From positions 4,080 to 68,079 of the forward strand of contig JACRFR010000018.1 in NCBI GenBank assembly GCA_016212635.1: a stretch of 64,000 nucleotides of DNA, read 5' to 3'. Below are positions 5,938-40,069 of this stretch, piece by piece (position 1 is the stretch's first letter; the number at the start of each line of letters is the position of its first letter). A model generated the notes under the pieces. The model ran no database searches and had not been told where the DNA came from. It saw only the letters and a list, made by a program, of their open reading frames with translations. This stretch comes from Candidatus Liptonbacteria bacterium (GTDB taxonomy: Bacteria > Patescibacteriota > Minisyncoccia > UBA6257 > 2-01-FULL-56-20). The position numbers were made by a program, and so were the translations under genes.

Positions 5938-6492
5938 CTAGATGATTGACGGAGCAACTCGACTTGATTGAAAAGTCCAACCTCGCTCTGTAACTAATTC
6001 CCATAAGTTAAGACATTTAACGCCAAATAACGGATCATCGCAAACATTTGGCAGCTTATAGTTCTCAGGATCAGTGCTACCACTGTGAGTTTCTTCAGAA
6101 ATGATTTTAAGTTTGTGTAGTTTGGCCTGAGCAATAAGCCATGGATCCGCATAGACATCACTAGCTTTGTTTTTATTATTAACAAAAACTTTATACGTCA
6201 CGGACATGCTCCTGATAATCTTTCCCTCTATATCCTCATCGTGATTCTTGAAAATATGCTCATTGGCATGAGCCCAATTGTAGAGTTCCTCGCCCTTCTT
6301 CCCGTCTTTCTTTATTTCCGCCAATACCTCAGCGTGGGAGATGATCACTCCTTCGGCCATCAGTTCTTTGATCCTTTCCCAGAGGCCAGGATTAACACTC
6401 TTTGATATCCACGGCGTTTCGCTGAAAATTGACATCAAGGAGCAACTATCAATGGTATATTCTGCGGGTTTAGAAAAGAGATCACCTGGCAT
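5938..6492 (-). CDS. PIN-like (DUF4411-like) putative nuclease, co-operonic with the upstream XRE-ImmA gene.
   Basis: 184 aa with an 11-nt overlap with the upstream gene. N-terminal YTIDSCSLMSIF and later conserved acidic residues are consistent with a PIN-like fold. The DUF4411 assignment is from memory of that family's association with ImmA/IrrE genes. Confidence 0.4.
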   Translation of the reverse strand: MPGDLFSKPAEYTIDSCSLMSIFSETPWISKSVNPGLWERIKELMAEGVIISHAEVLAEIKKDGKKGEELYNWAHANEHIFKNHDEDIEGKIIRSMSVTYKVFVNNKNKASDVYADPWLIAQAKLHKLKIISEETHSGSTDPENYKLPNVCDDPLFGVKCLNLWELVTERGWTFQSSRVAPSII

Positions 6493-7675
6493 GAGAGTGT
6501 ATTAGTTTTTCCAACCCAGGCAAATGCTTCATCTTCAATCCAAGGTAATCTGAGATTCCCGAATACGGTATTTTTTTCTGCTTGTAAGCCTCAAAAACAA
6601 GAGAGCTAAAACCCACGCCATTTTTTGACAAGATAGTCTTCAGGGAAAATCTCCCACCCTTCTTCCCATTCGGCCGGGGTTCACCATCCCATTTTTTTGT
6701 TTTGGCTTCGTAAATTGCCGAAGTAACATAATTGAATGTTAGCAACCTCCTCAAAATTACCACTCGGCTCACTTTGAAATCAAAAGCTATCCGCTCAATT
6801 TTAGAATCGAGGTCCTCGGGGGATATTTTTGTCTTATCTTTCAAAGTTCTATGCTTTAAGAATTCCGCCTCCGGTACCAAGAAGCTGGCGGCGAACTGGT
6901 TGCAAAAAACCTCAAGCTTATTTATCCCATTCTTGTGACCGCTGAAAGATTTGAAGTTGTTGCAAATACCGGCTTCACGTAGAAGAACGTGCGCAAATTC
7001 ATGCGCCAAAGAAAAGTTCTTTGCTCCTTCAGTATCCTTATTGTTCACAAAAACCAGATATGGCTGTTGGTCAGCGAAAGAGAAAGCACGACAATCTGTT
7101 ATTGGAAAACTATCGTGAAGACCGCTTTTTAGGGTTATCACGCCCGCACTTTCGATTTTGTTCCGTAGGTACTCGAAGAAATCCTCGTACTTCTTGAAAC
7201 CAAATTGCTCATTTGCCGAAATCAAAAGGTCAGCTCTTATGTTTTCCGCTAATTCTGAAGCGTTCTCATCTAAGGAATGCCGTGCATATTTAAAAAAAGG
7301 TCTTTCGCCGAGTTCTTCATGGAGATCTGCGGATACCTCTTGAACTCTTCTCGCTTTTCTAATAGCCAAGAGTGCCGCCGGAGATAAGAGCTTATTATCT
7401 TCCGAGTTGATAGTTCTGAGATCTGGCGGATCCTTTTTTTCTTTCGGTGGACCATCGAGAAAGAATACGGCCAGGGGTCGTTTATATATTTCCGCGAGTT
7501 TTCTTACCTGTGCGAAGGTCGGCTGAGCAATTCCATTTTCCCACTCCTTAATGAGATCGGGGGTGACTTCTTTCCATGATTCAACCCAATTGGCCAGCAA
7601 AATTTCCATTTTTGGGCCAAATCTTTTTTCACGTGCCCATTTCAATACTACAGGTTCAAATCTCAAATCTGCCAT
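6482..7675 (-). CDS. Fusion of an XRE-family HTH domain and an ImmA/IrrE (COG2856, M78-like) zinc metallopeptidase.
   Basis: N-terminal HTH (QPTFAQVRKLAEIYKRPLAVFF) and an HEFAHVLL HExxH motif mid-protein. 397 aa. Confidence 0.8.
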   Translation of the reverse strand: MADLRFEPVVLKWAREKRFGPKMEILLANWVESWKEVTPDLIKEWENGIAQPTFAQVRKLAEIYKRPLAVFFLDGPPKEKKDPPDLRTINSEDNKLLSPAALLAIRKARRVQEVSADLHEELGERPFFKYARHSLDENASELAENIRADLLISANEQFGFKKYEDFFEYLRNKIESAGVITLKSGLHDSFPITDCRAFSFADQQPYLVFVNNKDTEGAKNFSLAHEFAHVLLREAGICNNFKSFSGHKNGINKLEVFCNQFAASFLVPEAEFLKHRTLKDKTKISPEDLDSKIERIAFDFKVSRVVILRRLLTFNYVTSAIYEAKTKKWDGEPRPNGKKGGRFSLKTILSKNGVGFSSLVFEAYKQKKIPYSGISDYLGLKMKHLPGLEKLIHSHAR

Positions 7676-7836
7676 AACTAAATTATAGCAATAAACAGCC
7701 CCGAAAAAACATCTGGTAAAAACTTATAACCGCCTTTCAAAGAGGTAATCTAGACAGCTTCTTAGCGGTTATTTACTCTTTCGTACTCGTTCTATTCGTC
7801 TTGACTGGTTAGAAGAAAGTCGGCATTTAAGCCTCA

Positions 7837-7880
7837 TGGTCGGTCTCACTGCGTTGTGCCCTCGAGAGGAATCGAACCCA
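7837..7880 (-). repeat. Degenerate copy of the 3' half of tRNA-Arg plus its 16-nt downstream flank (att-like direct repeat).
   Basis: GGTTCGATTCCTCTCGAGGGCACAA + CGCAGTGAGACCGACC aligns with the T-arm/acceptor/3' flank of the tRNA at 9084-9127. The flank is identical and the tRNA part has about 6 mismatches. The T-stem can no longer pair, so it is not a functional tRNA. Confidence 0.55.
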
Positions 7881-7956
7881 GTAAAACTCTCCCCTAGATG
7901 ACGGCGAATTGCCACGGGGCAGACACGTATTGTTGGTTACAGTACTGAAGTTTTAT

Positions 7957-9051
7957 TTAAAGAGTTGCAAACAACCCCAACTCTATACCGATGTCGTATG
8001 CCTCATCCACAGAACACGTCATGATTTTTCTATAGCTTTTCCGGCCAAACCTTTTTTCGACAGCTCTGGCCAGGGGCAATATTTTGCCATCAATCCTTGC
8101 CTGCTCTGCGAGATTTTGGAACTCCGGGATTTCTGCTCTTAGGCGTGAGACAAGAAGGAAAGCGGCGGCAGATTGGGAGCCAAAACTTACAGTACTACCG
8201 TCAAAATTAAATATCCTCCGAGATTCTTCCGGGAAGTTGTCTAGCCGCGGATCTTTTTCGGCCACATAGTTCAGTAACTTAGCGTACAAAGCTTTTCCTT
8301 TGGGAAATTGTGTTTGGAGTAAGTTGTCTGCGTCTTCTTCTGCGAGCATGGCTAGACCCTCTTCGACCGCCGGAGTTTGTAGACCTGCCTCGCATCTAAT
8401 ATATCCCAAACCTCTCCGCTCCAAAGGCTTTACGCTATCGAAAACATGTTCATTTTCTCCAGTCGCCTTGTTTCGCACGGTGCGAAACAGAAGAGAAAAC
8501 GGTGCGGCATCGTGGTATAGCTCATGTAGAACTTGGCGGGCCTCAATATATTCTCTTACTGCTTTTGCGGCACCCGGCCTAGTCATTCCGCCTAAACTTT
8601 TTTCATCTGTCATGGCAATTGGGTGAAAATGATCATCATCCCTTATTCTTTGATCGAGAGAACTGGGCACAAGTTTTTCTTTTGTTAAATTATGTAGGAC
8701 GATATATCCGAAGCTAGTGCCCGCCCGGAGGGCAGTTATGTTCCCCTCCTCCATAGAAGATGGGTTCCGCAATTTAAAGATGCGTTCTTGTTCTGTCCAT
8801 CGTATTGGACTCAACACACCAAATTTACAAAATCGCTTCTCGTGCCACCGTCTAGCCCGGGAACTGAAATTTCGCATCTCGACCGACAGTTCAATAGTTC
8901 CTTCTTTGGCCGTTCGTGCTACTTCGTTCATTGTCACTTTAACACCCATTCTAGTTCTGGAGATTCTTTGCCTCTCTTTCTTGTCTAGTAAGTCTGCAGA
9001 CCGTTCCTTGTTGAGAATAAAGTTTTCTCCTGGCCTGGTAAAGTTTCTCAT
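7957..9051 (-). CDS. Hypothetical protein (364 aa) lying between the tRNA-derived direct repeats.
   Basis: Long ORF with no motif I can assign. Bounded by the 7837-7880 and 9084-9127 repeats. Confidence 0.5.
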   Translation of the reverse strand: MRNFTRPGENFILNKERSADLLDKKERQRISRTRMGVKVTMNEVARTAKEGTIELSVEMRNFSSRARRWHEKRFCKFGVLSPIRWTEQERIFKLRNPSSMEEGNITALRAGTSFGYIVLHNLTKEKLVPSSLDQRIRDDDHFHPIAMTDEKSLGGMTRPGAAKAVREYIEARQVLHELYHDAAPFSLLFRTVRNKATGENEHVFDSVKPLERRGLGYIRCEAGLQTPAVEEGLAMLAEEDADNLLQTQFPKGKALYAKLLNYVAEKDPRLDNFPEESRRIFNFDGSTVSFGSQSAAAFLLVSRLRAEIPEFQNLAEQARIDGKILPLARAVEKRFGRKSYRKIMTCSVDEAYDIGIELGLFATL

Positions 9052-9100: not shown

Positions 9101-9175
9101 TGGTGCCCCCGGCAGGAATCGAACCTGCATCACCTCCTTCGGAGGGAGATATCCTATCCGTTGAACGACGAGGGC
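9101..9175 (-). tRNA. tRNA-Arg (anticodon CCG), 75 nt with encoded CCA.
   Basis: Folded by hand. Acceptor GCCCTCG/CGGGGGC, D-arm, anticodon stem TCTCC/GGAGG with loop CTCCGAA (U33, A37), 4-nt variable loop, T-arm GCAGG-TTCGATT-CCTGC, discriminator A, CCA. Confidence 0.85.
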
Positions 9176-13281: not shown

Positions 13282-13397
13282 TTTTGGTTGATTGCGGCTG
13301 TGGATAACTTGGTGTATAATAGGTCTACCAACAGGTGAGTCCCTACTCGTGAGGTACCGGAGGGTTCCTCTATATAGCGGGTGGGGCTCTGTTGTTT

Positions 13398-14039
13398 TTA
13401 AGGAAATAGGGGATTTTCTTCCACGATTTTCTGGCGAATGAGATTGTAGTAAGTATCGTCTCCGTACTCATACTTACGAAAGATGGCCCAAGAAGCAAAA
13501 TCTACGATTTGCAGGCTTGCTTCTTCTCTGGTTGATTTTATCTCTGCGGTCAGGCGCAGGGCATGGTTGCGTTCGGTCTGTTGTGCGAGGTACCACTTAA
13601 AGTTCTCGTTTAAAAACTTATTTGTCTGCCGGCGCGACGCGACGAGTGTGATTGGCTCATTTACCGGTAAAAGTTTCTTTCGATATATTCGATCGAGAAG
13701 TATGTTGGTAACGTAGTTGTATAAGACATCTTGTTCCGCTTGCAGATTGGTATATACCCGACGCTTATTAAGATAAATGCAAAGTATGCTGACGTCTTTC
13801 TCGGCCAAAAGCGAGAGGGTTTGGGTGCGCACTTTGGGTGATTCGTAGTGTGCGTGCAGTACGCCGACGTGCCGCTTCCTCTCACGTCCCGCTAGTGCGC
13901 GCCTGACTTTGCGCACGATTTTCTCCACCGGACCCTTGTGCGCGACAAAAAGCGCAGTGATTAAAAAATACTTAGTGGTTCGCTTTTTGGCGAAGTTAAA
14001 GCCCGAATCCCCGCTTTCATCCAGAAAGATGTGGACCAT
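13398..14039 (-). CDS. DUF3800-family protein.
   Basis: N-terminal IFLDESGDSGF signature. Confidence 0.55.
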   Translation of the reverse strand: MVHIFLDESGDSGFNFAKKRTTKYFLITALFVAHKGPVEKIVRKVRRALAGRERKRHVGVLHAHYESPKVRTQTLSLLAEKDVSILCIYLNKRRVYTNLQAEQDVLYNYVTNILLDRIYRKKLLPVNEPITLVASRRQTNKFLNENFKWYLAQQTERNHALRLTAEIKSTREEASLQIVDFASWAIFRKYEYGDDTYYNLIRQKIVEENPLFP

Positions 14040-22919: not shown

Positions 22920-23415
22920 ATTGCTTAAATAGGAACAGGCTAGCGCCAGCCAGCGCCAGGGCAACGCCCAGGGCCAACAGCATTATATCCCAAAAACTAC
23001 CCGCTGACCGAACCACTAGGCTGGAGGGATAGGTGTCTTGAGTTAGAACTGCCGCCAACTGGTTGGCTCGTCCCGGAGTCGGCTCCGAGAACCGGAAGTG
23101 GTTCCCAAATCGGCTGAAACTCCGCCCCTCCGACGCCGCACCCAGAAATGCCGCCTGGTCGGCCAACTGACCCCCGGCCGCATACAGACTGACTGCTCCG
23201 CCCTGATTCCCCAGGGTGAGTTTAGTTTCGGACCGAGCAAGCAGCGCATATCCATGGGGAGCGATAACTCCATCCAGGGCCACGCTTTTTTTATTCACCG
23301 CCAACTGCCAGTTTTGGAGATTGACCGGCGCGTCTCCGGTATTTACCAGCTCCACCCATTCGCCCCGGGCATCATTTCCTTTGGGGTTGGGCAGCCATTC
23401 GTTGATGAGAATCAT
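22843..23415 (-). CDS. Lamin-tail-domain (LTD) protein with a C-terminal transmembrane anchor.
   Basis: INEWLPNPKGNDARGEWVELVNTGDAPVNLQNWQL is the LTD signature. Confidence 0.6.
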   Translation of the reverse strand: MILINEWLPNPKGNDARGEWVELVNTGDAPVNLQNWQLAVNKKSVALDGVIAPHGYALLARSETKLTLGNQGGAVSLYAAGGQLADQAAFLGAASEGRSFSRFGNHFRFSEPTPGRANQLAAVLTQDTYPSSLVVRSAGSFWDIMLLALGVALALAGASLFLFKQYDQIYNLFFPRDSKTGSGLGANPLG

Positions 23416-23432
23416 ATTAAAGAGATTCGAAC

Positions 23433-25946
23433 TTACACTGAATTAAAAAGTGAATTAAATTTCCGCCTCCATTCGTTTTCGAAAATAACTTGGAAATTTA
23501 TATGGCTCTTTTGGAGTGCTAATCCCAAATCGCTCATTTTCTTTTCGTCCGCCATTTTATTGCACACTTCGAAAAGCGACTTTTTGTAATCGGTATCCTC
23601 GTTTTTTAGGTGCACCCCTTTTGTTTCGATTATAAACACCGACCCGCCGACCTTTCCGTTGGCTACGGAGAAAATAAAGTCGGGGTACACTTTTTGTTTT
23701 TTCCACCCTTGAATGGCATAATCGCTACGCGCGACATTCCGGAACCAGAAAAACAACTTGTCCTGGTCCTCTAGATACCATGCCACCGCTTTTTCTGTTT
23801 TGTTAAACTCGTCCTCTGCTACGAATTCAAACAAGCTTCTCTGAAGCGGCTGCCCATCATTTCGTAAGAGTGGGCGTGATAAAGTTTTTGCCTTGATTTG
23901 CTTAGGGAATTTGAAGCCGAGATCGTTTCCGATCACCAGAAACTTCAGTCGTCCCGCGTCAAGAAGTTTTTGAAACACTTGTTTCGAAAGGCGATTTTTC
24001 TCGCTTGAAAGAAGTTTGCGCAATTCCTCGATAACAAAAACAAAATTATTGGCCACCAATTTAATATTGTGCCGGGCAATTAATTCTTTAAGCACCAAGG
24101 CACCGATTTTATAGGAAAGCCATGGATTGGGTACAATATCGAGCAGGTGCCGAGCGAGAAAAACTTCATCTAACTTTAAAGCGCCGCTTCTCAAATGTTT
24201 TACACCCTGTTGTTCGATAAGTTTGTGCGGGTTGGTAGCTAGCGACACGATCTGCTCGATGTCTTTTTCTTCGATGAGGGAGAGGGGAAGCGAATACATC
24301 GGCTCGATATTTATTTCATTCCAGTCAATGCGGCTTGCAATGTCGCGCTCATAATTTACGACCCAAGATTCCCGCCCGTCTTGCATGACGAATACGGGCA
24401 GGATAATCTGGCTCACCGCTTTTTTGAATTTTTCCCGAATCAAAACGTTTTTTTCTCTAACCGCTTCTGATCCTTCAAGGCCTTCGTCCGTTACCACTTG
24501 CCCCGCAAGATCGCCAAGCCCCTCCTGTTCGAATCCTGATCGAATGTTCGACAAAAGAGCGCTGGCTCGTTGTTGGTAGCAAAACACATAACTTTCATCA
24601 AGCTCTTTCACTTTTGTTTTCCTTGCGAACGGCTGACGAAGAATGCGTCCAACGAGCTGGGTTAAAGCATTCTGGGATGTCGGATTTGAAAGAATGGTTA
24701 GCACATACGCAAACGGGCAGTCCCAGCCCTCCTGAAGCGCTTGCTTGGTTATGATGTACCTGATCTGACAATCCCGCGACAAAAGTCCGCCCACGTCATC
24801 GACCTCTTTAAGTTCGTCCTTCTCGCTTGTTTTAGTGGCGATCTGCTCGGCCGGAATGCCCATGGTTTTTATGAGAAACTCGCGCACGTCTTCGGCGTGG
24901 ATACGCCCGCTATCCCTTTGGTCTTTTCCGGTTCGTTCAACTTGAATCAAAACAATCGGGCGGATATAGGCTCCTTTATTCGCCTCGTACTCTTGTGCTT
25001 TTTCTTCTAAAAAACCGCGATGGTTTACCGCCGCCAAAAGTGTATCTTTCCAATCCGTGCTCGCCTTATTGATGATGTGCAGGTCAAGCTTAATCATTCC
25101 CTCCTGATTAAGTTCCGCGCCGCGAATATCAACCAAAATATTGCTTTCTTCCGGCGGTGTTGCGGAAAGTTCAAGAATCATCAAGGGGTTGAAACTGCGA
25201 AGCGTGCTCTGCGCCGTTTCACTGTATGCTTTGTGTCCCTCGTCAAGAATGATTAAAGGATTTAAAAGCCGGAGCGTGTTTCCCAGTGATGTTTTGATCT
25301 GATATTCCCAAAAGTTTCCCGCCTCGCCATAAGTATTGAGGTTGGGAATTTGTTTTAGTAATTCTTGATTGGCCTTGATGTTGTCCTCTGGCGGGAAGAA
25401 GTCCTGAAAACCGCCATTGTCTTTAAACATCCGGAGTGTCTCTTTGTTTTGACGCGAAGCCGACGGCAACATCAGTATAAGGACTACTAGATTTTCGTTT
25501 ATATCGAGCGGGACAAACCGATCCGTTTTCTCCAAAATCGTAGTCCGACCACCACTCGCAATATCAAGGTGTTGCCGATAGGGATGTTCTCGATCTCGTA
25601 AACTTCTTATCGTTTGATTATAAATTTGCGTGGTGGGCACTATCCAAAGAATAAGCCCTGTGCGCTTTTTGAGATAAGTTGTATTGATGAGATCGATCGC
25701 CTTTACGGCAAGCAGTGTTTTGCCGCCGCCGGTTGGGATCTTGAGGCAGAAGTTAGGCAATGGATTACCAATGCCGTTTTTATGCGAGTGATACTTCTTG
25801 CCGACTTCTGCCTTTTCCCACGCCTTCGCCGGAAAATCTATCTCCAGCTCCGGGTTTTGCGCGGCTTTCGTGCGCCAACCATTAAGTTGCTCGAGGTAAT
25901 GCTTGAGCTGTTCCAGGGTCTTTATTTGATAATCCTTGAGTTCCAT
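23433..25946 (-). CDS. res: Type III restriction enzyme Res subunit (SF2 helicase plus C-terminal PD-(D/E)xK nuclease).
   Basis: PTGGGKTL (motif I), LIILDEGHKA (DEAH-like motif II), and a C-terminal VYPDFIF...IIETKG nuclease motif. Confidence 0.85.
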   Translation of the reverse strand: MELKDYQIKTLEQLKHYLEQLNGWRTKAAQNPELEIDFPAKAWEKAEVGKKYHSHKNGIGNPLPNFCLKIPTGGGKTLLAVKAIDLINTTYLKKRTGLILWIVPTTQIYNQTIRSLRDREHPYRQHLDIASGGRTTILEKTDRFVPLDINENLVVLILMLPSASRQNKETLRMFKDNGGFQDFFPPEDNIKANQELLKQIPNLNTYGEAGNFWEYQIKTSLGNTLRLLNPLIILDEGHKAYSETAQSTLRSFNPLMILELSATPPEESNILVDIRGAELNQEGMIKLDLHIINKASTDWKDTLLAAVNHRGFLEEKAQEYEANKGAYIRPIVLIQVERTGKDQRDSGRIHAEDVREFLIKTMGIPAEQIATKTSEKDELKEVDDVGGLLSRDCQIRYIITKQALQEGWDCPFAYVLTILSNPTSQNALTQLVGRILRQPFARKTKVKELDESYVFCYQQRASALLSNIRSGFEQEGLGDLAGQVVTDEGLEGSEAVREKNVLIREKFKKAVSQIILPVFVMQDGRESWVVNYERDIASRIDWNEINIEPMYSLPLSLIEEKDIEQIVSLATNPHKLIEQQGVKHLRSGALKLDEVFLARHLLDIVPNPWLSYKIGALVLKELIARHNIKLVANNFVFVIEELRKLLSSEKNRLSKQVFQKLLDAGRLKFLVIGNDLGFKFPKQIKAKTLSRPLLRNDGQPLQRSLFEFVAEDEFNKTEKAVAWYLEDQDKLFFWFRNVARSDYAIQGWKKQKVYPDFIFSVANGKVGGSVFIIETKGVHLKNEDTDYKKSLFEVCNKMADEKKMSDLGLALQKSHINFQVIFENEWRRKFNSLFNSV

Positions 25947-25955
25947 GGGTCGCCT

Positions 25956-25973
25956 GTGGATAACTGTGGATAA
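25956..25973. promoter_or_regulatory. Two tandem perfect DnaA-box-like 9-mers (TGTGGATAA x2; TTATCCACAG x2 on the res strand), 10-30 nt upstream of the res start codon.
   Basis: CTGTGGATAACTGTGGATAACT. The same 12-mer CTGTGGATAACT occurs at 13299-13310, 17 nt upstream of the Mur ligase start. Confidence 0.5.
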
Positions 25974-25975
25974 CT

Positions 25976-26068
25976 TTGACTTTCTACATTAATCTCTGCT
26001 ATACTGCAGGCGTAGGAGAAATCCTACTACTCACGCGGTCCCGCCAAAAGCGGGATTTTCGCTTTTTA
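25976..26068 (+). ncRNA. Candidate ~55-nt plus-strand transcription unit between res and the NYN gene: a sigma70-like promoter (TTGACT-18-TATACT), a GTAGGA-GAAA-TCCTAC hairpin, then an intrinsic terminator (CCCGC-CAAAA-GCGGG + ATTTTCGCTTTTTAT).
   Basis: All elements were read directly from the sequence. It is oriented antisense to the res/NYN operon. Confidence 0.35.
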
Positions 26069-26737
26069 TACGTAAAATCTTTTGCCGGTATAAAATTTGC
26101 CAAAGTCAATATATTTATCTTTGATGCCATGTAATTCTCCTGCCACTTTCCCCCGCACGCCAGCAATGCCGATTTTTTTGCCTTTTACTTTCAGTCGTTC
26201 TATTGGTTTTAATAAATCCGAATCGCCAGAGAATAAAATGATTGCTGTCGCTTTTTCGGCATCATCCAGCATATCCATTGCTATTTCCACATCAAAATTA
26301 CACTTCGGCTCTTCAATTATCGTGCCGAATTTATTAAGCTCACTCATTAGCTCCTGAATCTTTTTCCTAACGCCTTCATCAAACAAAGTCAGCGTCCGGC
26401 GCTGGAAGAATAAGCCCTCGTCAATATTTTTTGGAATAAACTTCATCGGTTTTGTTCTTAAAATAGCGCCGGCCGTCCTAATGCGATTATGGAAAGCTTC
26501 GGAGTTTTTCTCGTCTCGCTCATTCAAGCCGTAATAAACCTTAACTTCTTTTATGTTGGGAAAGTTAAACAGTTGCTCCACTATGTCCTCTATGCGGAAT
26601 TTCCACCCTAGAACATCTTGCCAATGGAACATATTCGTTAAATCTAAATAAGCAAAGATTGATGTCTCTTTACTTATCCATTCCAAATAATCTTGTCTCA
26701 CAATAAACTTATTCAAAACGTCTCGTGGAATATCCAT
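26066..26737 (-). CDS. NYN-domain (LabA-like PIN-related) putative nuclease, encoded between the type III mod and res genes.
   Basis: ILFSGDSDLLKPIERLK and N-terminal acidic motifs. The start ATG 26737 lies 4 nt after the mod stop. Confidence 0.7.
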   Translation of the reverse strand: MDIPRDVLNKFIVRQDYLEWISKETSIFAYLDLTNMFHWQDVLGWKFRIEDIVEQLFNFPNIKEVKVYYGLNERDEKNSEAFHNRIRTAGAILRTKPMKFIPKNIDEGLFFQRRTLTLFDEGVRKKIQELMSELNKFGTIIEEPKCNFDVEIAMDMLDDAEKATAIILFSGDSDLLKPIERLKVKGKKIGIAGVRGKVAGELHGIKDKYIDFGKFYTGKRFYV

Positions 26738-26741
26738 AGCT

Positions 26742-28439
26742 TTATTTCGCCAGTTTATAAATCTCAAACGGCAATTGGGCAAAAACGATGCGGTATCCGT
26801 CCAGTTTTTCCTGGTCTAGATATTTTGTGGGCGCGAAAACCAAGCGCTTCTTTGTTTTCACTTTCCCAAGCTCTTTCGCTTTATCCAGAGTAAGAGCAGT
26901 ATTTTTTAGATAAGCGAGATCTGGCTTGTAGAAAAGATAAACCTCGTATTCTTTGCTTTCGCCGATAAAATTCTTCTTCTCGTTTATTTTCTTTTCGTTG
27001 AATTCCTCGCCGGTCGCGGTATAAAAAACATAGCGCGCGAGTTCGTTGTAGGAAGGCAGATTTTTGCCCGACAAAATGCTTTCCATTTCTATCGGTTTGC
27101 CGAGTTCAAAATAGCTAAATGTTCCACCTAGTCCTTTTTTGAGATTCTCGTCTTTGGCGGTTTTCACTCCCCTGATGACGCGCCGCACTCGCTCCGCGGT
27201 TATTGTGTCAGTGTAATCTTCCATCTCAACGAGGATAAATTTTCGATTGCCACCATCCTCTTTGTTGAGCGCCAAAACTGCGTGAGCAGTCGTGCCAGAA
27301 CCGGCAAAGGAGTCGAGAATTATGGAATCTTTATCTGTTGCAATTTCTACAATTCTTTTCAGTAAACCTAACGGCTTAGGATATTCAATTGTTTTTCTCT
27401 CGAGAATAAGTTTTAAAAGCTTGCCCCCTAATTCCGTATTGACCTCTGAATCCAACCACATTGAACGAGGTTTAGCGGTTTTTTGTTCGCCGTTTCGATT
27501 CAAATAATCTTTAATAAAAATGTCGAATTCATCTCGACCGCTTACTTTTCGGCCATATATTCGATTAATTTCATCCATCACTTTTTTCTTGCCCCACATC
27601 CATCTACCATCCCTTCCGTCAGATTTTCTTGGGAAAACTTCAACTGTGTGATCTTTAGTTTTCTCTAAACTTACAATCCCGTTTTTTGAATTAACATAAA
27701 TTGGAAAAAACATTTCTGGTCTTTCTTCGCGTAAAGAAGCGGCTCCGCGCTGGCGTAAACCAAGTTCTCTCCATTTCTTGCCGTCTTTATCTTGCTGATC
27801 GTATTCATCAATATTTTCTTGTGTCAGAGGCAAACCATTCAAAATTACTTCGTCTATGCCCCTGGTATAACAAAGACAATACTCATGCAACGTAGCAACG
27901 TTTTCATCAGATTGGCGACCGCGCGGATTAGCTTTGATCGAAAAGTTGGTAATGAAGTTTTCTTCGCCAAAAACTTCGTCCATTAAATCTCTTAGATGAT
28001 GTTGTTCATTGTCATCAATCGAAATAAAAATCGCGCCGTCGTCTCGCAATAATTCTCGTAATAACTTTAAGCGCGGTGTCATCATGCACAACCATTTATC
28101 GTGGCGGGTTAGATCGTCGCGATCCACCACCCTCCCCAGCCATTCCTGCATCATCGGAGAATTCACATTGTCGTTATACGCCCATCTTTCATTGCCGGTG
28201 TTGTATGGCGGATCGATGTAAATGCACTTTACCTTGCCCGCATAGGTAGGGAGTAGCGCTTTGAGGGCGACAAGGTTGTCGCCGTGGATAATAAGGCTAT
28301 CATCCAGCCGGACATTGCCTGCCCTTTTATCCTTCCCTTCGACCAAACTCAAGGCAGGTCGCGGAATAAGCTCGCGGTACTTCACCGCCAGATGATGATT
28401 CTGGACGAATTGCTTTCCTTTGAAATTCAGTTGGGCCAT
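26742..28439 (-). CDS. mod: Type III restriction-modification Mod subunit (N6-adenine/N4-cytosine DNA methyltransferase, beta class).
   Basis: IYIDPPYNTGNE (DPPY motif IV) before DSFAGSGTTAHAV (motif I). Confidence 0.85.
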   Translation of the reverse strand: MAQLNFKGKQFVQNHHLAVKYRELIPRPALSLVEGKDKRAGNVRLDDSLIIHGDNLVALKALLPTYAGKVKCIYIDPPYNTGNERWAYNDNVNSPMMQEWLGRVVDRDDLTRHDKWLCMMTPRLKLLRELLRDDGAIFISIDDNEQHHLRDLMDEVFGEENFITNFSIKANPRGRQSDENVATLHEYCLCYTRGIDEVILNGLPLTQENIDEYDQQDKDGKKWRELGLRQRGAASLREERPEMFFPIYVNSKNGIVSLEKTKDHTVEVFPRKSDGRDGRWMWGKKKVMDEINRIYGRKVSGRDEFDIFIKDYLNRNGEQKTAKPRSMWLDSEVNTELGGKLLKLILERKTIEYPKPLGLLKRIVEIATDKDSIILDSFAGSGTTAHAVLALNKEDGGNRKFILVEMEDYTDTITAERVRRVIRGVKTAKDENLKKGLGGTFSYFELGKPIEMESILSGKNLPSYNELARYVFYTATGEEFNEKKINEKKNFIGESKEYEVYLFYKPDLAYLKNTALTLDKAKELGKVKTKKRLVFAPTKYLDQEKLDGYRIVFAQLPFEIYKLAK

Positions 28440-28471
28440 TGTTTCGTGAATAAAATGTGTCTTGAATTAAC

Positions 28472-29533
28472 TTACAGCAGTGTTCCTGGCTGTTTTTTTC
28501 CCAAATGCTCATAGGCGGGCGCAAGCGCCACCCGGCCTCCCGGTTTGCGCTGGAGGAAGCCGAGGCTCATCAAAAAGGGCTCGTACACTTCGGCGATCAC
28601 ATCCTCGTCCTCATTCAGCGCCGCCGCCAGGGTGTTCAGGCCTACCGGTCCGCCGCCGAACTTGTCAATTATTGTTTCCAGCAGGCGGCGGTCGTGCGGC
28701 TCCAAGCCTCGCGCATCGATTTCTAGGAGTTCCAGCGCTTCCCGGGCGGCCGGCACGTCGATCGCGCCTTGTCGATGCACTTCGGCGTAGTCGCGCGCGC
28801 GGCGCAACAGCCGGTTAGCCACGCGCGGGGTGGCCCGGGCGGCGGCGGCCAGGATCGAGACCGCCTCCGCCGCGATTGCCGTACCCAAAATTTTCGCGGA
28901 GCGGGCTAGGATCTTTTCAATGTCATGGTCGTGATAGTAGGTTAGCCGGAACGTAGCCCCGAAGCGCGAGCGCAGGGGTTGGGATAAAAGATTCTCGCGA
29001 GTAGTTGCGGCGATCAGGGTGAAGGGGGGCAGGTCGATCATGAGCGCGCGAGCGCTGGGACCCTTACCCACCACTAGGTGGAGTTTGTAACTCTCCATGG
29101 CGGGATAGAGAACTTCCTCGATCATGCGGTTGATCCGGTGCGCCTCGTCGATGAAGAGCACGTCTCGGGGTTCTAGGTTGGTCAAAATGGCGGCCAGGTC
29201 TCCGGTTCGCTCCAGGGCCGGACCGGAAGTTACTTTAACCTGGCTGCCGAGTTCGCGCGCGGTCAGATAGGCCAGAGTGGTCTTGCCTAAGCCCGCCGGT
29301 CCGGAAAAAAGCAGGTGATCCGCCGCTTCCTTCCTTTGTTTGGCGGCCCGCAGTATGACCTGGAGGCTCTTCTTTATGTTCGCTTGACCCACAAAGTCAT
29401 CCCAGTTGGCGGGTCGCAGGGTTAGGTCCAGGGCCGCATCATCCGGTCCGGCATGCACGTTTAAATCCTTATTTTTACTGGCTTTTTTATCATTCATTAG
29501 AATAGGGGCGGGGTTGGCCAACTCTATTGACAA
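28472..29533 (-). CDS. ruvB: Holliday junction helicase RuvB.
   Basis: LFSGPAGLGKTTLA, VLFIDEAHRIN, sensor and arginine-finger regions. The start is either TTG 29533 or ATG 29497. Confidence 0.95.
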   Translation of the reverse strand: MSIELANPAPILMNDKKASKNKDLNVHAGPDDAALDLTLRPANWDDFVGQANIKKSLQVILRAAKQRKEAADHLLFSGPAGLGKTTLAYLTARELGSQVKVTSGPALERTGDLAAILTNLEPRDVLFIDEAHRINRMIEEVLYPAMESYKLHLVVGKGPSARALMIDLPPFTLIAATTRENLLSQPLRSRFGATFRLTYYHDHDIEKILARSAKILGTAIAAEAVSILAAAARATPRVANRLLRRARDYAEVHRQGAIDVPAAREALELLEIDARGLEPHDRRLLETIIDKFGGGPVGLNTLAAALNEDEDVIAEVYEPFLMSLGFLQRKPGGRVALAPAYEHLGKKQPGTLL

Positions 29534-37191: not shown

Positions 37192-38301
37192 TCAGGAAGT
37201 CAGGATGGGGGCGATAATGTAGAAAAAGGAGGGGTCTTTGGGGTTTTTAAGCAGGGCGGGTTTGTCTTCGTTAATTCCCCAAAAAACATCTTCCCCGATT
37301 AAAGACCTAAGTCCATCCAAAAGGTAGCGGGCGTTGAAGGTTACGCGGTTGAACCCATTGGTGAGTTTTACCGGGAGGAGATACTGGTTCTCTCCGGCCA
37401 CCGTGTCGCCGGAAGAAAGTTTTATGCCGTTTAGTGTTTTTTCCGGCTCGACGCGAACTTCGTTGTTGCGCCCGCCCAAAACACTGACTAGCTTCAGGGC
37501 GTCAATCAACTCTTGTTTTTTTAAAGTAACTTCAGCGGTAAAAGCGGAGGGGATAATGGTTTGGTAGTCGGGGAAAACTCCTTCCACAAACCGGGTAATG
37601 CACTCGAAGTTTTTTGTTCGCACTAAAAGTTGGGATTGGTCGGGTAGGAGCTCAACTTCGTCGGTGTCTTTAATGGTTCGTAACAGCTCTTGAATGGTGC
37701 GCAGGGGGATCAGTTTTCGTAGGGGTTGCGGGTAGCCGCCTTGGTATTGTCCGCCGGTGACGGTTTTTTCCGCCAAGCGATAAGTGTCGGTCGCAACCAA
37801 CCGTATATTATCGATGGAATAGTCCCACAGAACAGAGGATAGTTCCGGTCGCAGGTCGGTAATTTGCGCCGCGCCGGCCACCGGACCCAGCGCTCCCCGG
37901 AAAACGCTTCCGGTCATAGAAATTTTTTCGGTTTGGTTGCTTATTTTGGGAATAATTGGAAAGTCCTCCGCGGGCATCCCGTTGATACTGCCTTCGTAAT
38001 TCTCGGTTTTAATCAGTAGGGCTTGTTGTTTCTGTTCGAGATTAATCCGCTCGCTGGTTAGATTGCCGACAATATTAGAAAGTAGTCCCAGTGGTGTCGT
38101 TAGGCTGCCGCCTTCCAGAACTTTGCCCGGAACTGAATATCGGAGGGCGATCTCCAGGTTGGTGGCGGTTAGGGTTATGTCCTCGCCCCTAGCTTCCAGA
38201 AGAACGTTTTTTAGAATCGGCAAACTTGCACCCTCGCCTAGCGCGCGCTCCACCACCACCAACCCTTCTTTAAGATGAGCCCGAAGCACTATAATCTTCA
38301 T
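37192..38301 (-). CDS. dnaN: DNA polymerase III beta sliding clamp.
   Basis: Three-domain beta clamp. N-terminus MKIIVLRAHLKEGLVVVERAL. Confidence 0.9.
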   Translation of the reverse strand: MKIIVLRAHLKEGLVVVERALGEGASLPILKNVLLEARGEDITLTATNLEIALRYSVPGKVLEGGSLTTPLGLLSNIVGNLTSERINLEQKQQALLIKTENYEGSINGMPAEDFPIIPKISNQTEKISMTGSVFRGALGPVAGAAQITDLRPELSSVLWDYSIDNIRLVATDTYRLAEKTVTGGQYQGGYPQPLRKLIPLRTIQELLRTIKDTDEVELLPDQSQLLVRTKNFECITRFVEGVFPDYQTIIPSAFTAEVTLKKQELIDALKLVSVLGGRNNEVRVEPEKTLNGIKLSSGDTVAGENQYLLPVKLTNGFNRVTFNARYLLDGLRSLIGEDVFWGINEDKPALLKNPKDPSFFYIIAPILTS

Positions 38302-38412
38302 TTTTATAAATAATAATACTAGTAGTAGTTAATAGTGGCTGGGGATGTGGGGATAAGAGGGATAAACCAAAGTAAATAATACCAAAAAAAAGGAAAGAAA
38401 TCCCCACAAATT
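38302..38412. promoter_or_regulatory. Candidate oriC/DUE region (AT-rich with imperfect DnaA boxes) between dnaA and dnaN.
   Basis: TGTGGGGATAAG and TCCCCACAAA are box-like sequences, and there are long A/T runs. Confidence 0.4.
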
Positions 38413-39783
38413 TCAGCTCTTGTTGATAAGTTCTCGGATTTGGAACATTTTTTGGTTTAAATTGGAGTTTTTAGTCAACTCTACGGTTATTTTTTCGAAA
38501 GAATGGATGGCGGTGGTGTGGTCCCTACCCATCTTTTCCCCAATATATGGATAAGATAGTCCCAAAATATCCCGAAGCAGGAACATGGTTACTTGGCGCG
38601 GCTCCACAATTTCTTTGCGGCGGCACCGCCCGATCAAATCAGTGGTGGGGATATTATAGAAGTCAGCTACTGCGCCAATAACCTGCGCGTCACTGACCGG
38701 CCGGGAGAAGGCTTGAATGGACTTATCAATGATCTCCTCCGCCACCTTACGGCTGATATCAGTTTGTTTTTTATCCTGATAAAAAACAATCTTATTCAAA
38801 ATTCCTTCCAGCTCGCGGATATTCTTTTTAACTCGGCGGGCGATCAAATCCACCACCTCATCCGAAAGCAAACGCCCGCCCTGTTGCAGTTTGCTTTTAA
38901 TAATCGCCACCCGGGTCTCATACTCCGGATAACTAATATCCACAATTAAACCACCCTCAAAACGCGAGCGCAGACGTTCTTCTAAGGTTGGAATAGATTG
39001 CGGAGGCCGATCGGAAGAAATGATTATTTGTTTATTGTGTTCATATAAAGCATTGAATGTGTGGAAAAACTCCTCCTCGGTTTTTTCCTTACCCCCAATA
39101 AACTGAATATCGTCGATGATCAACACATCCACATCCCGATACTTCTTTTTAATGTCCTCCATGCGTTTATTGCGGATCGCCCAAACCACATCGTTAGTGA
39201 ACCTTTCCGAAGTTACATATTTAGGCCTAACTGTGCCATGATAACGCAGTAAGATCTCATTACCCACAGCCTGGATTAAATGGGTCTTGCCTAAACCCAC
39301 TCCCCCGTATACAAAAAACGGGTTGTACTTGGTGCCGACATCCTGCACAACCGCGCTGGCCGCGGCGTGAGCCAGCTCATTAGAGGAACCTACGACAAAA
39401 CTGTTAAGGGTGTATCGGGAGTTAAGGTTGGTTTCGGGATCAACCCTAAACTCCAAACTAATTTGACTCTGGTTGGGGCTGGTTCGCTCCCCGGCCGCCG
39501 CCGCCCGTTTATGGGCTTCCTCGGCGGCTTCGCTGATAACCACAAACTCCAGTTTTTTTACCGAGTCGTCAAAGATCCGAATGATCCCCAAAAGATCTTT
39601 GTGATATTTGTTTTGCACCCACTCTTTGGCGAAATTGTTTGGCAGGCCGACACAACCAACCCCATCCCGCCGATCCAAAAAACAACTGCCTTTTAACCAA
39701 GTAGCGAAATTAGCCCGAGAAGTTTTTTGCTCCATCTCACCCAAAACCAATCTCCACAAATTTTCCAAATCCATAAAAGCCAA
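38413..39783 (-). CDS. dnaA: Chromosomal replication initiator DnaA.
   Basis: GGVGLGKTHL, the AAA+ domain, and a C-terminal DNA-binding domain. Confidence 0.95.
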   Translation of the reverse strand: MAFMDLENLWRLVLGEMEQKTSRANFATWLKGSCFLDRRDGVGCVGLPNNFAKEWVQNKYHKDLLGIIRIFDDSVKKLEFVVISEAAEEAHKRAAAAGERTSPNQSQISLEFRVDPETNLNSRYTLNSFVVGSSNELAHAAASAVVQDVGTKYNPFFVYGGVGLGKTHLIQAVGNEILLRYHGTVRPKYVTSERFTNDVVWAIRNKRMEDIKKKYRDVDVLIIDDIQFIGGKEKTEEEFFHTFNALYEHNKQIIISSDRPPQSIPTLEERLRSRFEGGLIVDISYPEYETRVAIIKSKLQQGGRLLSDEVVDLIARRVKKNIRELEGILNKIVFYQDKKQTDISRKVAEEIIDKSIQAFSRPVSDAQVIGAVADFYNIPTTDLIGRCRRKEIVEPRQVTMFLLRDILGLSYPYIGEKMGRDHTTAIHSFEKITVELTKNSNLNQKMFQIRELINKS

Positions 39784-39934
39784 AAGTTAGAGGGTATTTT
39801 TCAGGTGCAATCATTCTACTCCCACCCAAACACAAGTCAAAACCAATTCCGAAGATATGGGGATTACTTGTTAAGAAGTGCCTACCCCCCAACCCCCTTA
39901 AATTTTGTATCAGTCTATGCTAGAGTAGCCTTAC

Positions 39935-40069
39935 ATGTCCACCACCTATCAACCCAAAAAGCGGAAAAGGGCCAAAACCCACGGGTTCCGGGCCAGGCGA
40001 CTTACCCCAACCGGACGACGGGTACTTACCCGCCGGCGCCAAAAGGGCCGCCGGAAGCTTAGTGTTTAA
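39935..40069 (+). CDS. rpmH: 50S ribosomal protein L34.
   Basis: [44 protein letters not shown]. Found by eye (44 aa, below the ORF-track cutoff). Confidence 0.85.

Follow-up and report, generated by a model that had tools for sequence, protein, structure and literature searches.

The DNA described here, hereafter the window, is a stretch of 64,000 nucleotides from Candidatus Liptonbacteria bacterium (assembly GCA_016212635.1, contig JACRFR010000018.1, positions 4,080 to 68,079 of the forward strand), and it holds a complete, horizontally acquired type III restriction-modification (R-M) operon (mod-res) between ruvB and an LTD-domain gene, with a gene for an NYN/LabA-like nuclease and a convergent small RNA gene lodged between the two R-M genes. 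The R-M island (23416-28471, minus strand) has a G+C content of 38-46%, against 57-60% for the flanking ruvB, LTD and polA genes; it starts 32 nt after ruvB and ends 17 nt before the LTD-domain gene, all on the minus strand. The embedding is a nested one, of a cassette within an R-M operon within a co-directional row of host genes, with tsaE and polA downstream. Identical Mod and Res proteins are recorded for a genome assembly of Candidatus Liptonbacteria.

The methyltransferase gene mod (26742..28439, minus strand; 565 aa) matches PF01555 (2.7e-36) and the PADLOC model MTase_III (5e-151), and its product carries DPPY at residue 76 followed by FAGSG at residue 378, the motif order of the beta-class N6-adenine methyltransferases. 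The restriction subunit gene res (23433..25946, minus strand; 837 aa), encoding an SF2 helicase with a C-terminal PD-(D/E)xK nuclease, matches ResIII (4e-16) and, over its full length, PADLOC REase_III (8e-187, residues 49-829), with GGGKT at residue 73, DEGH at 235, YPDF at 754 and ETKG at 774 as the helicase and nuclease motifs. Profile matches and motifs together bear out the type III mod and res recognised in a first-pass annotation of this DNA, as well as its gene row of mod, an NYN gene 4 nt further on and then res, co-directional on the minus strand; the mod stop codon TAA is followed by AGCT and then by the NYN start codon ATG at 26737. In a type III system mod directly precedes res. 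Here 795 nt holding the NYN cassette lie in between and the operon is otherwise intact, so the locus is best described as a type III system with an insertion.

The inserted protein-coding gene (26066..26737, minus strand; 223 aa) has no promoter of its own. Its product matches PF01936 at 8.2e-14 (52.8 bits, cutoff 24.2), over the C-terminal half of the model only, and bears an SGDSD motif at residue 170. The AlphaFold model (pLDDT 80) found LabA-like 2qip (6.6e-7) and the MARF1 NYN domain (3.5e-4) as top PDB matches in Foldseek, and five acidic residues (D32, D149, E151, D172 and D174) are invariant across 42 homologues. With the PIN-like fold and the conserved acidic metal-binding residues of the family, the protein looks like an active NYN nuclease as far as sequence and model can tell, and the identification of the middle open reading frame (ORF) as NYN in the first-pass annotation withstands the profile search that it had proposed as a check, with PF01936 above its cutoff, an NYN fold and the acidic residues intact. 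NCBIfam has no model matching the protein. Profile searches gave NYN as its sole domain and did not find the PrrC/RloC architecture of an ABC ATPase with a HEPN RNase; literature searches that combined NYN with antisense RNA, antitoxin or Patescibacteria brought up no relevant work, and no study of this NYN subfamily was found.

Opposite the 3' end of the NYN gene, and overlapping it, lies a convergent small RNA gene of about 57 nt (26011..26067, plus strand), recognised by a covariance model and by covariation. It comprises a 5' hairpin (26012-26027, plus strand) and a terminator hairpin (26035-26062, plus strand) followed by a U-run, and it is preceded by a sigma-70-type promoter (25976-26005, plus strand) made up of TTGACT, 18 nt and TG-n-TATACT, which agrees with the consensus at 10/12 positions and has an extended -10 box, from which the probable transcription start is placed. 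This promoter is the top promoter match of the region 23300-28700, and the top terminator match of the same 5.4 kb, with a T-run behind it, is at 26037-26057 of the plus strand. The antisense mini transcription unit that had been noted ahead of res is therefore real, with its plus-strand promoter and terminator in place. The spacer between NYN and res measures 119 nt and contains TTATCCACAGTTATCCACAG. The two perfect TTATCCACAG repeats reported right before res are equally genuine; they correspond to two tandem perfect TTATCCACA(G) copies (25955-25963 and 25965-25973, minus strand) that match the DnaA-box consensus and lie directly upstream of the -35 box of the small RNA and 9 nt upstream of the res start codon.

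The block that follows the NYN ORF keeps the same order in 70 loci, namely ORF end, hairpin, -10 box, -35 box and TTATCCACA; read on the opposite strand, it shows first a promoter (TTGAC, about 17 nt, TGnTATAnT), next a 6-bp hairpin whose loop is GNRA or UUCG and then, beyond a conserved linker, a terminator hairpin that is rich in G+C and has a U-run. TTGAC and TGnTATAnT occupy the same position in all 70. A covariance model of the RNA (R1) has a sole hit in the window, at 26008-26064 (80.3 bits, E 3.6e-17), and exactly one match per locus in 58/58 other loci, without exception antisense to NYN at its 3' end. The 34 res loci that lack NYN gave no match, nor did loci with NYN relatives of only 30-39% identity. 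RNAalifold on a wide alignment (A3) recovered the terminator helix only, gaps disturbing hairpin 1, and a hand-written structure was then tested on a cleaner alignment of 32 sequences (A4), in which 99.6% of cells were paired and 8/16 pairs showed compensatory changes; 0/500 shuffles reached the observed values and slid controls paired at about 40%. The window RNA itself folds at a minimum free energy of -23.3 kcal/mol (z -3.8). The G-U wobbles fall on the strand antisense to NYN, and this strand folds more stably in 64/70 loci.

Where the NYN gene runs over the terminator, the protein tail is frame-variable or missing (missing in the window) while the DNA is near-invariant: the last 11 or so codons of most NYN homologues (KSENPAFGGTA, KAKIPL..., or none) are read in differing frames (window 26033-26068, columns 238-252 of alignment A2), and the complement of the conserved linker, GTGATTAG, gives stop codons in two frames. 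A frame-variable tail over near-invariant DNA, in a gene whose synonymous sites are saturated, means that the conservation acts at the RNA level, the constrained molecule being the RNA read antisense to NYN. Searches of Rfam 15 returned no family for it, whether for 25850-26300 at E up to 10 or for the whole window at gathering score.

The 9-nt sites at the promoter are also over-represented. The 64-kb window has three perfect TTATCCACA copies against 0.23 expected, two of them at the NYN cassette and the third at 13299. Across the 70 loci, TTATCCACA in either orientation stands just upstream of, overlaps or lies inside the small RNA promoter as a perfect copy in 28 and with at most one mismatch in 42, against 1.5 for shuffled sequence, and it is absent from the most distant NYN subgroup. 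We take TTATCCACA to be the well-known DnaA-box consensus, and it is on this basis that we assume binding by DnaA.

The NYN subfamily is compact. A large database yielded 671 homologues, of which the best 120 are all 74-83% identical to the window protein and come mostly from Patescibacteria; a library clustered at 50% identity reduces it to a few clusters, after which there is a drop to generic LabA proteins at about 35%. It is also patchy, with about 80 species hits in 185,579 genomes in a scan that requires exact peptide words and therefore undercounts, and one metagenome-assembled genome (MAG) has two copies. Synonymous sites are saturated (pS 0.72-0.94, with dN 0.12-0.25), which rules out a recent horizontal sweep as the source of the 75-83% protein identity; judged by these substitution values, the family is old and not recently spread. 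A phage or plasmid origin of the cassette likewise finds no support, since no homologue was found in IMG/VR or in the phage and plasmid collections.

The cassette's neighbours were surveyed at 74 NYN-family loci from different species genomes, with R-M genes counted within 2.5 kb. A type III mod is near 5/74 of these loci, a type I hsdM near 15/74 and any R-M gene near 20/74; the density of R-M genes is 10 per 100 kb within 1 kb of NYN and zero at 5-8 kb, and the other neighbours span 150 Pfam families. Neighbouring genes are mostly co-directional (52/57 upstream, 48/57 downstream), and about ten loci have gaps of 3-5 nt. The cassette occurs as a fixed unit in many operons that are unrelated to one another, independent of type III systems. 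The accessory effector or regulator that the first-pass annotation suggested for this operon is thus not tied to type III systems, given five loci near a type III mod, fifteen near hsdM and most elsewhere.

This survey also bears on the idea that NYN is a dedicated type III partner, a latent RNase of the PrrC kind that Mod and Res would hold in check and release when phage blocks them, with the antisense unit regulating res. The PrrC precedent and the proximity of NYN to methyltransferase genes above chance speak for it, as do the few recurrences of the pairing: apart from the window the order mod-NYN-res occurs only in L017 and L027, and NYN stands directly upstream of a type III mod in L005-9, L018, L060 and L078. 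However, none of 34 relatives of the window res has NYN, most NYN loci lack R-M genes, hsdM neighbours are three times commoner than type III mod, NYN lies on either side of the methyltransferase gene, and the antisense unit is found wherever NYN is. Moreover, the NYN relatives most similar to that of the window (83% identity) lie behind hsdM in a type I operon or beside a 2'-5' RNA ligase gene. We consider a dedicated partnership rather improbable.

Two gene orders deserve description. L005-L009, L018 and L060 read RadC, DUF4357, NYN, mod, DUF3644, res, and DUF3644 coincides in part with a HEPN family reported to be embedded in R-M systems (Anantharaman 2013, PMC3710099), so that with DUF3644 alongside NYN these type III operons hold two predicted RNases. 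The type I operon of L128-L131 reads hsdM, 3 nt, NYN, a 48-aa ORF, a 241-aa ORF, hsdS, a 274-aa ORF and hsdR, and the three extra ORFs (48, 241 and 274 aa) have no Pfam hit.

The same comparison addresses the earlier suggestion of unusual control of the restriction subunit, in the form that the antisense promoter and the DnaA boxes evolved to delay or damp res relative to mod. The geometry in the window invites it, with the boxes 9 nt from the res start codon and a strong antisense promoter facing the incoming mod transcript, and a similar unit stands ahead of res in L116. The unit of L116, however, belongs to a DUF3800 cassette, and the NYN-linked unit precedes hsdM, mod, hsdS, an aminoacyl-tRNA synthetase gene, many others, or no gene at all. 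Because the TTATCCACAG repeats and the antisense unit travel with NYN into every genomic context, they are, on this comparative evidence, part of the NYN cassette rather than a control of res. A purpose-built regulation of res is in our estimate very improbable, and an effect on res expression, if any, would be a side effect of insertion.

The mod-res junction was examined in 34 metagenomic relatives of the window res gene (L091-L124), the kind of survey of type III loci that had been put forward at the outset. None has an NYN of the window type, and the gene does not belong to the common type III accessories that have been described before, 0/34 res relatives carrying it. In 23/34 mod and res are adjacent, the junction being empty, and in 11/34 other genes occupy it: PDDEXK_3 in three loci, a 255-aa protein without Pfam match in three, an HTH-peptidase M78 protein with a DUF4411 PIN protein in two, a 200-aa protein without Pfam match, DUF3800 in L116, and another NYN protein, which BLASTP aligns to that of the window over a single stretch of 45 residues (E 1e-4). 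The mod-res junction of this lineage is an insertion hotspot, repeatedly host to foreign genes. Antisense units or DnaA boxes were not found beside the PDDEXK_3, 255-aa, HTH-M78 with PIN or other-NYN insertions; the DUF3800 insertion alone has them.

In L116 the insertion (positions 955-1830) is a DUF3800 cassette with an antisense promoter, a small RNA with terminator and tandem TTATCCAGTTATCCACA, and the Res of this locus is 68% identical to the window Res over the 371 residues held by the contig; a second cassette type has thus used the same junction. The window holds a DUF3800 cassette of its own (13282-14039), in a region lower in G+C than its flanks. There the DUF3800 gene (14039..13398, minus strand) is met by a convergent plus-strand unit with a -35 box TTGATT, an extended -10 box TGTATAAT and a structured RNA that measures about 75 nt and has a T-run at its end, and the third perfect DnaA box of the window (13299-13307) lies within the spacer of this promoter. 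The RNA has no Rfam hit. Homologous DUF3800 loci keep the layout and a covarying long stem, beside type III mod, an EcoRI-type methylase, RadC or Fic, and the layout including DnaA boxes is common to the DUF3800 cassettes of the window, L116, L132 and L136-L137.

Lower G+C (0.42-0.47, against a window average of 0.53) was also seen at 6001-9000 and 38001-40000 of the window, and a tRNA-Arg(CCG) gene (9101-9175) adjoins the first of these stretches.

Several NYN loci bear marks of insertion and of decay. In nine loci (L012, L028, L032, L036, L038, L041, L044, L067 and L077) the cassette stands between imperfect direct repeats of 21-87 nt that consist of host sequence; in L044 it is the 5' end of hsdS that is duplicated, in L028 a promoter, and in L036 the repeat corresponds to the gene upstream, at its 3' end. 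In the window itself no direct repeats above background flank the cassette. In seven loci (L059, L073, L076, L079, L080, L084 and L088) the NYN gene is frameshifted or deleted and the small RNA is intact and full-scoring; in L084 nothing is left of NYN but the first 50 and the last 36 codons, the RNA being kept. The single copy without the RNA, L068, is also without the catalytic SGDSD region.

The host repeats, the many different target operons and the internal-deletion derivatives L080 and L084, which keep both ends, are what would be expected of a self-mobilising element in which nuclease and RNA drive their own spread or retention, in a homing-like or OMEGA-like manner, R-M operons being merely tolerant sites. 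Such an element would be hard to reconcile with the absence of any recombinase or transposase, with an RNA that has no variable guide segment and stops short of the flank, with the absence of the family from phage, plasmid and viral collections, or with synonymous saturation, which argues against recent spread; we hold self-mobilisation to be quite unlikely. Two specific forms were set aside: an OMEGA-like guide RNA, the small RNA having no variable guide segment, and an integron cassette, no integrase gene lying beside the cassette in the loci listed (attC sites were not looked for).

The reading that we favour, and hold on balance to be probable, though with modest confidence, is that an independent cassette of NYN and small RNA has settled at the mod-res junction, and that it encodes a toxin-antitoxin or abortive-infection-like nuclease held in check by the small RNA. 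In its favour stand the fixed make-up of the unit in 70 loci, the one-to-one linkage of gene and RNA, the covariation and strand of the RNA and its constraint, the intact look of the nuclease, the varied contexts, the decay of R-M association with distance, the empty or otherwise filled mod-res junctions and the host repeats at nine loci. The decayed NYN copies that keep the RNA, and L068, which lacks both the RNA and SGDSD, give an indirect hint. The promoterless NYN gene would be read from the host operon transcript and would yield a potentially harmful nuclease, to which the small RNA would be the antidote. The target of this RNA could be the 3' end of the NYN mRNA, with which it would pair in the manner of type I toxin-antitoxin systems, or the protein, which it would bind in the manner of type III systems; the invariance of the RNA sequence favours protein binding over mRNA pairing. 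DnaA occupancy may tune the small RNA promoter. The cassette may then be an addiction or abortive-infection module that stabilises or backs up the R-M island, comparable to the part that PrrC plays in a type I system.

The same invariant RNA core, together with extreme purifying selection on the protein, would also fit a non-toxic ribonucleoprotein, in which an NYN-RNA complex serves RNA processing or surveillance with the RNA as cofactor, scaffold or substrate. The GNRA and UUCG tetraloops of hairpin 1 are typical of structural RNAs, and DUF3800 genes have analogous partner RNAs. On the other hand the family is patchy, with two copies in one MAG, varied contexts, frequent decayed copies and insertion scars; patchiness, varied contexts, decay and scars are features of accessory or selfish genes, and a complex of this kind seems to us unlikely.

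The case for a restrained nuclease in an addiction or abortive-infection module has its own weak points. About 70% of NYN-family loci have no adjoining recognised defence gene, and a dN/dS below about 0.06 is a conservation far above that of typical toxins. The one-to-one linkage of NYN and RNA follows in part from the physical overlap of the two genes. The RNA overlaps the 3' end of the mRNA and not the ribosome-binding site, so that it could not block translation directly, and TTATCCACA could be the site of another factor instead of DnaA. Finally, HEC-09, the sole tested NYN candidate embedded in a defence system, gave no phage defence (Payne 2024, bioRxiv 10.1101/2024.01.29.577857).

RNase genes embedded in R-M operons are established, with PrrC in the type Ic system EcoprrI and various HEPN genes as examples (Anantharaman 2013, PMC3710099), and further 'guilt by embedding' candidates include the NYN protein HEC-09, from a survey of Hma, BREX, DISARM and type I systems that did not cover type III (Payne 2024, bioRxiv 10.1101/2024.01.29.577857). 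The window shares with PrrC, HEPN genes and HEC-09 a predicted RNase gene inside an R-M operon and co-directional with it, and the concept of a second-line or accessory effector applies to it as well. Unlike PrrC and the HEPN proteins, the NYN protein has neither an ABC ATPase nor HEPN, comes with its own antisense small RNA gene and occurs in several host systems. It also differs from HEC-09, the PADLOC model of which gave E 2e-5 and matched only the NYN residues 162-204 (model residues 105-151 of 203), leaving the HEC-09 N-terminal domain without a counterpart. The 'composite defence module' seen in the first-pass annotation accordingly stands if taken to mean genes that lie embedded within operons for defence (Payne 2024; Anantharaman 2013), and falls as a gene tied to type III systems.

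Among toxin-antitoxin systems, the gene arrangement resembles those type I pairs in which an antisense RNA overlaps the 3' end of the toxin gene, such as txpA/RatA and bsrG/SR4 of Bacillus subtilis; type I pairs with nuclease toxins are represented by SymE/SymR and RalR/RalA. The likeness lies in a small RNA that converges on the gene, overlaps it at the 3' end and has a promoter and a terminator to itself, in a compact, two-component make-up and in a horizontally scattered distribution, and in all loci of the NYN subfamily an RNA opposite the gene is complementary to its mRNA. In contrast to these systems, the putative toxin is a 223-aa NYN nuclease and not a small membrane peptide, DnaA-box sites adjoin the RNA promoter, and the RNA is invariant far beyond the needs of cis-complementarity. 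Type III systems such as ToxIN, CptIN and TenpIN offer the second comparison. An endoribonuclease-like protein paired with a specific structured RNA, in a context that suggests abortive infection, is common to both, whereas the NYN cassette has a single RNA unit without tandem repeats, on the opposite strand and downstream of the gene, and an NYN fold instead of the ToxN/Kid-like fold.

A third point of comparison is provided by RNA motifs linked to DUF3800, a family with an RNase H-like fold; these motifs (DUF3800-I to XI, drum and skipping-rope) were described without a functional hypothesis (Weinberg 2017, PMC5737381). Like the NYN cassette, they join a nuclease-fold gene to a conserved structured small RNA with an intrinsic terminator; the NYN cassette differs in its protein family, its partner gene carrying no DUF3800, and in its RNA, which is absent from Rfam 15. 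No NYN-linked RNA motif is mentioned in that study (Weinberg 2017, PMC5737381). The combination of NYN, a convergent small RNA and DnaA boxes in one cassette appears to be undescribed.

By itself the three-gene operon is a modest addition, since embedded RNase genes are already a theme. What is new is a design in which a highly conserved NYN nuclease stands in fixed partnership with an antisense small RNA, conserved as well, and with DnaA-box sites; an unrelated nuclease family, DUF3800, repeats this design within the same window. Tentatively, and with more doubt than conviction, the NYN and DUF3800 subfamilies might together make up an unrecognised class of single-gene nuclease cassettes in host operons, among them R-M operons, of Patescibacteria and other uncultivated phyla, each with its own structured small RNA, as antidote or partner, expressed from a DnaA-box-controlled promoter. 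For annotation, the locus teaches that what looks like the regulation of a restriction gene can in fact be part of an inserted cassette. If the proposal is true, the DUF3800 RNA motifs would gain a testable role, and DnaA would for the first time be linked to a toxin-antitoxin or abortive-infection switch; and if the RNA is indeed the antidote, the cassette would represent a new toxin-antitoxin or abortive-infection family in the Patescibacteria, a group whose defence repertoire is poorly known.

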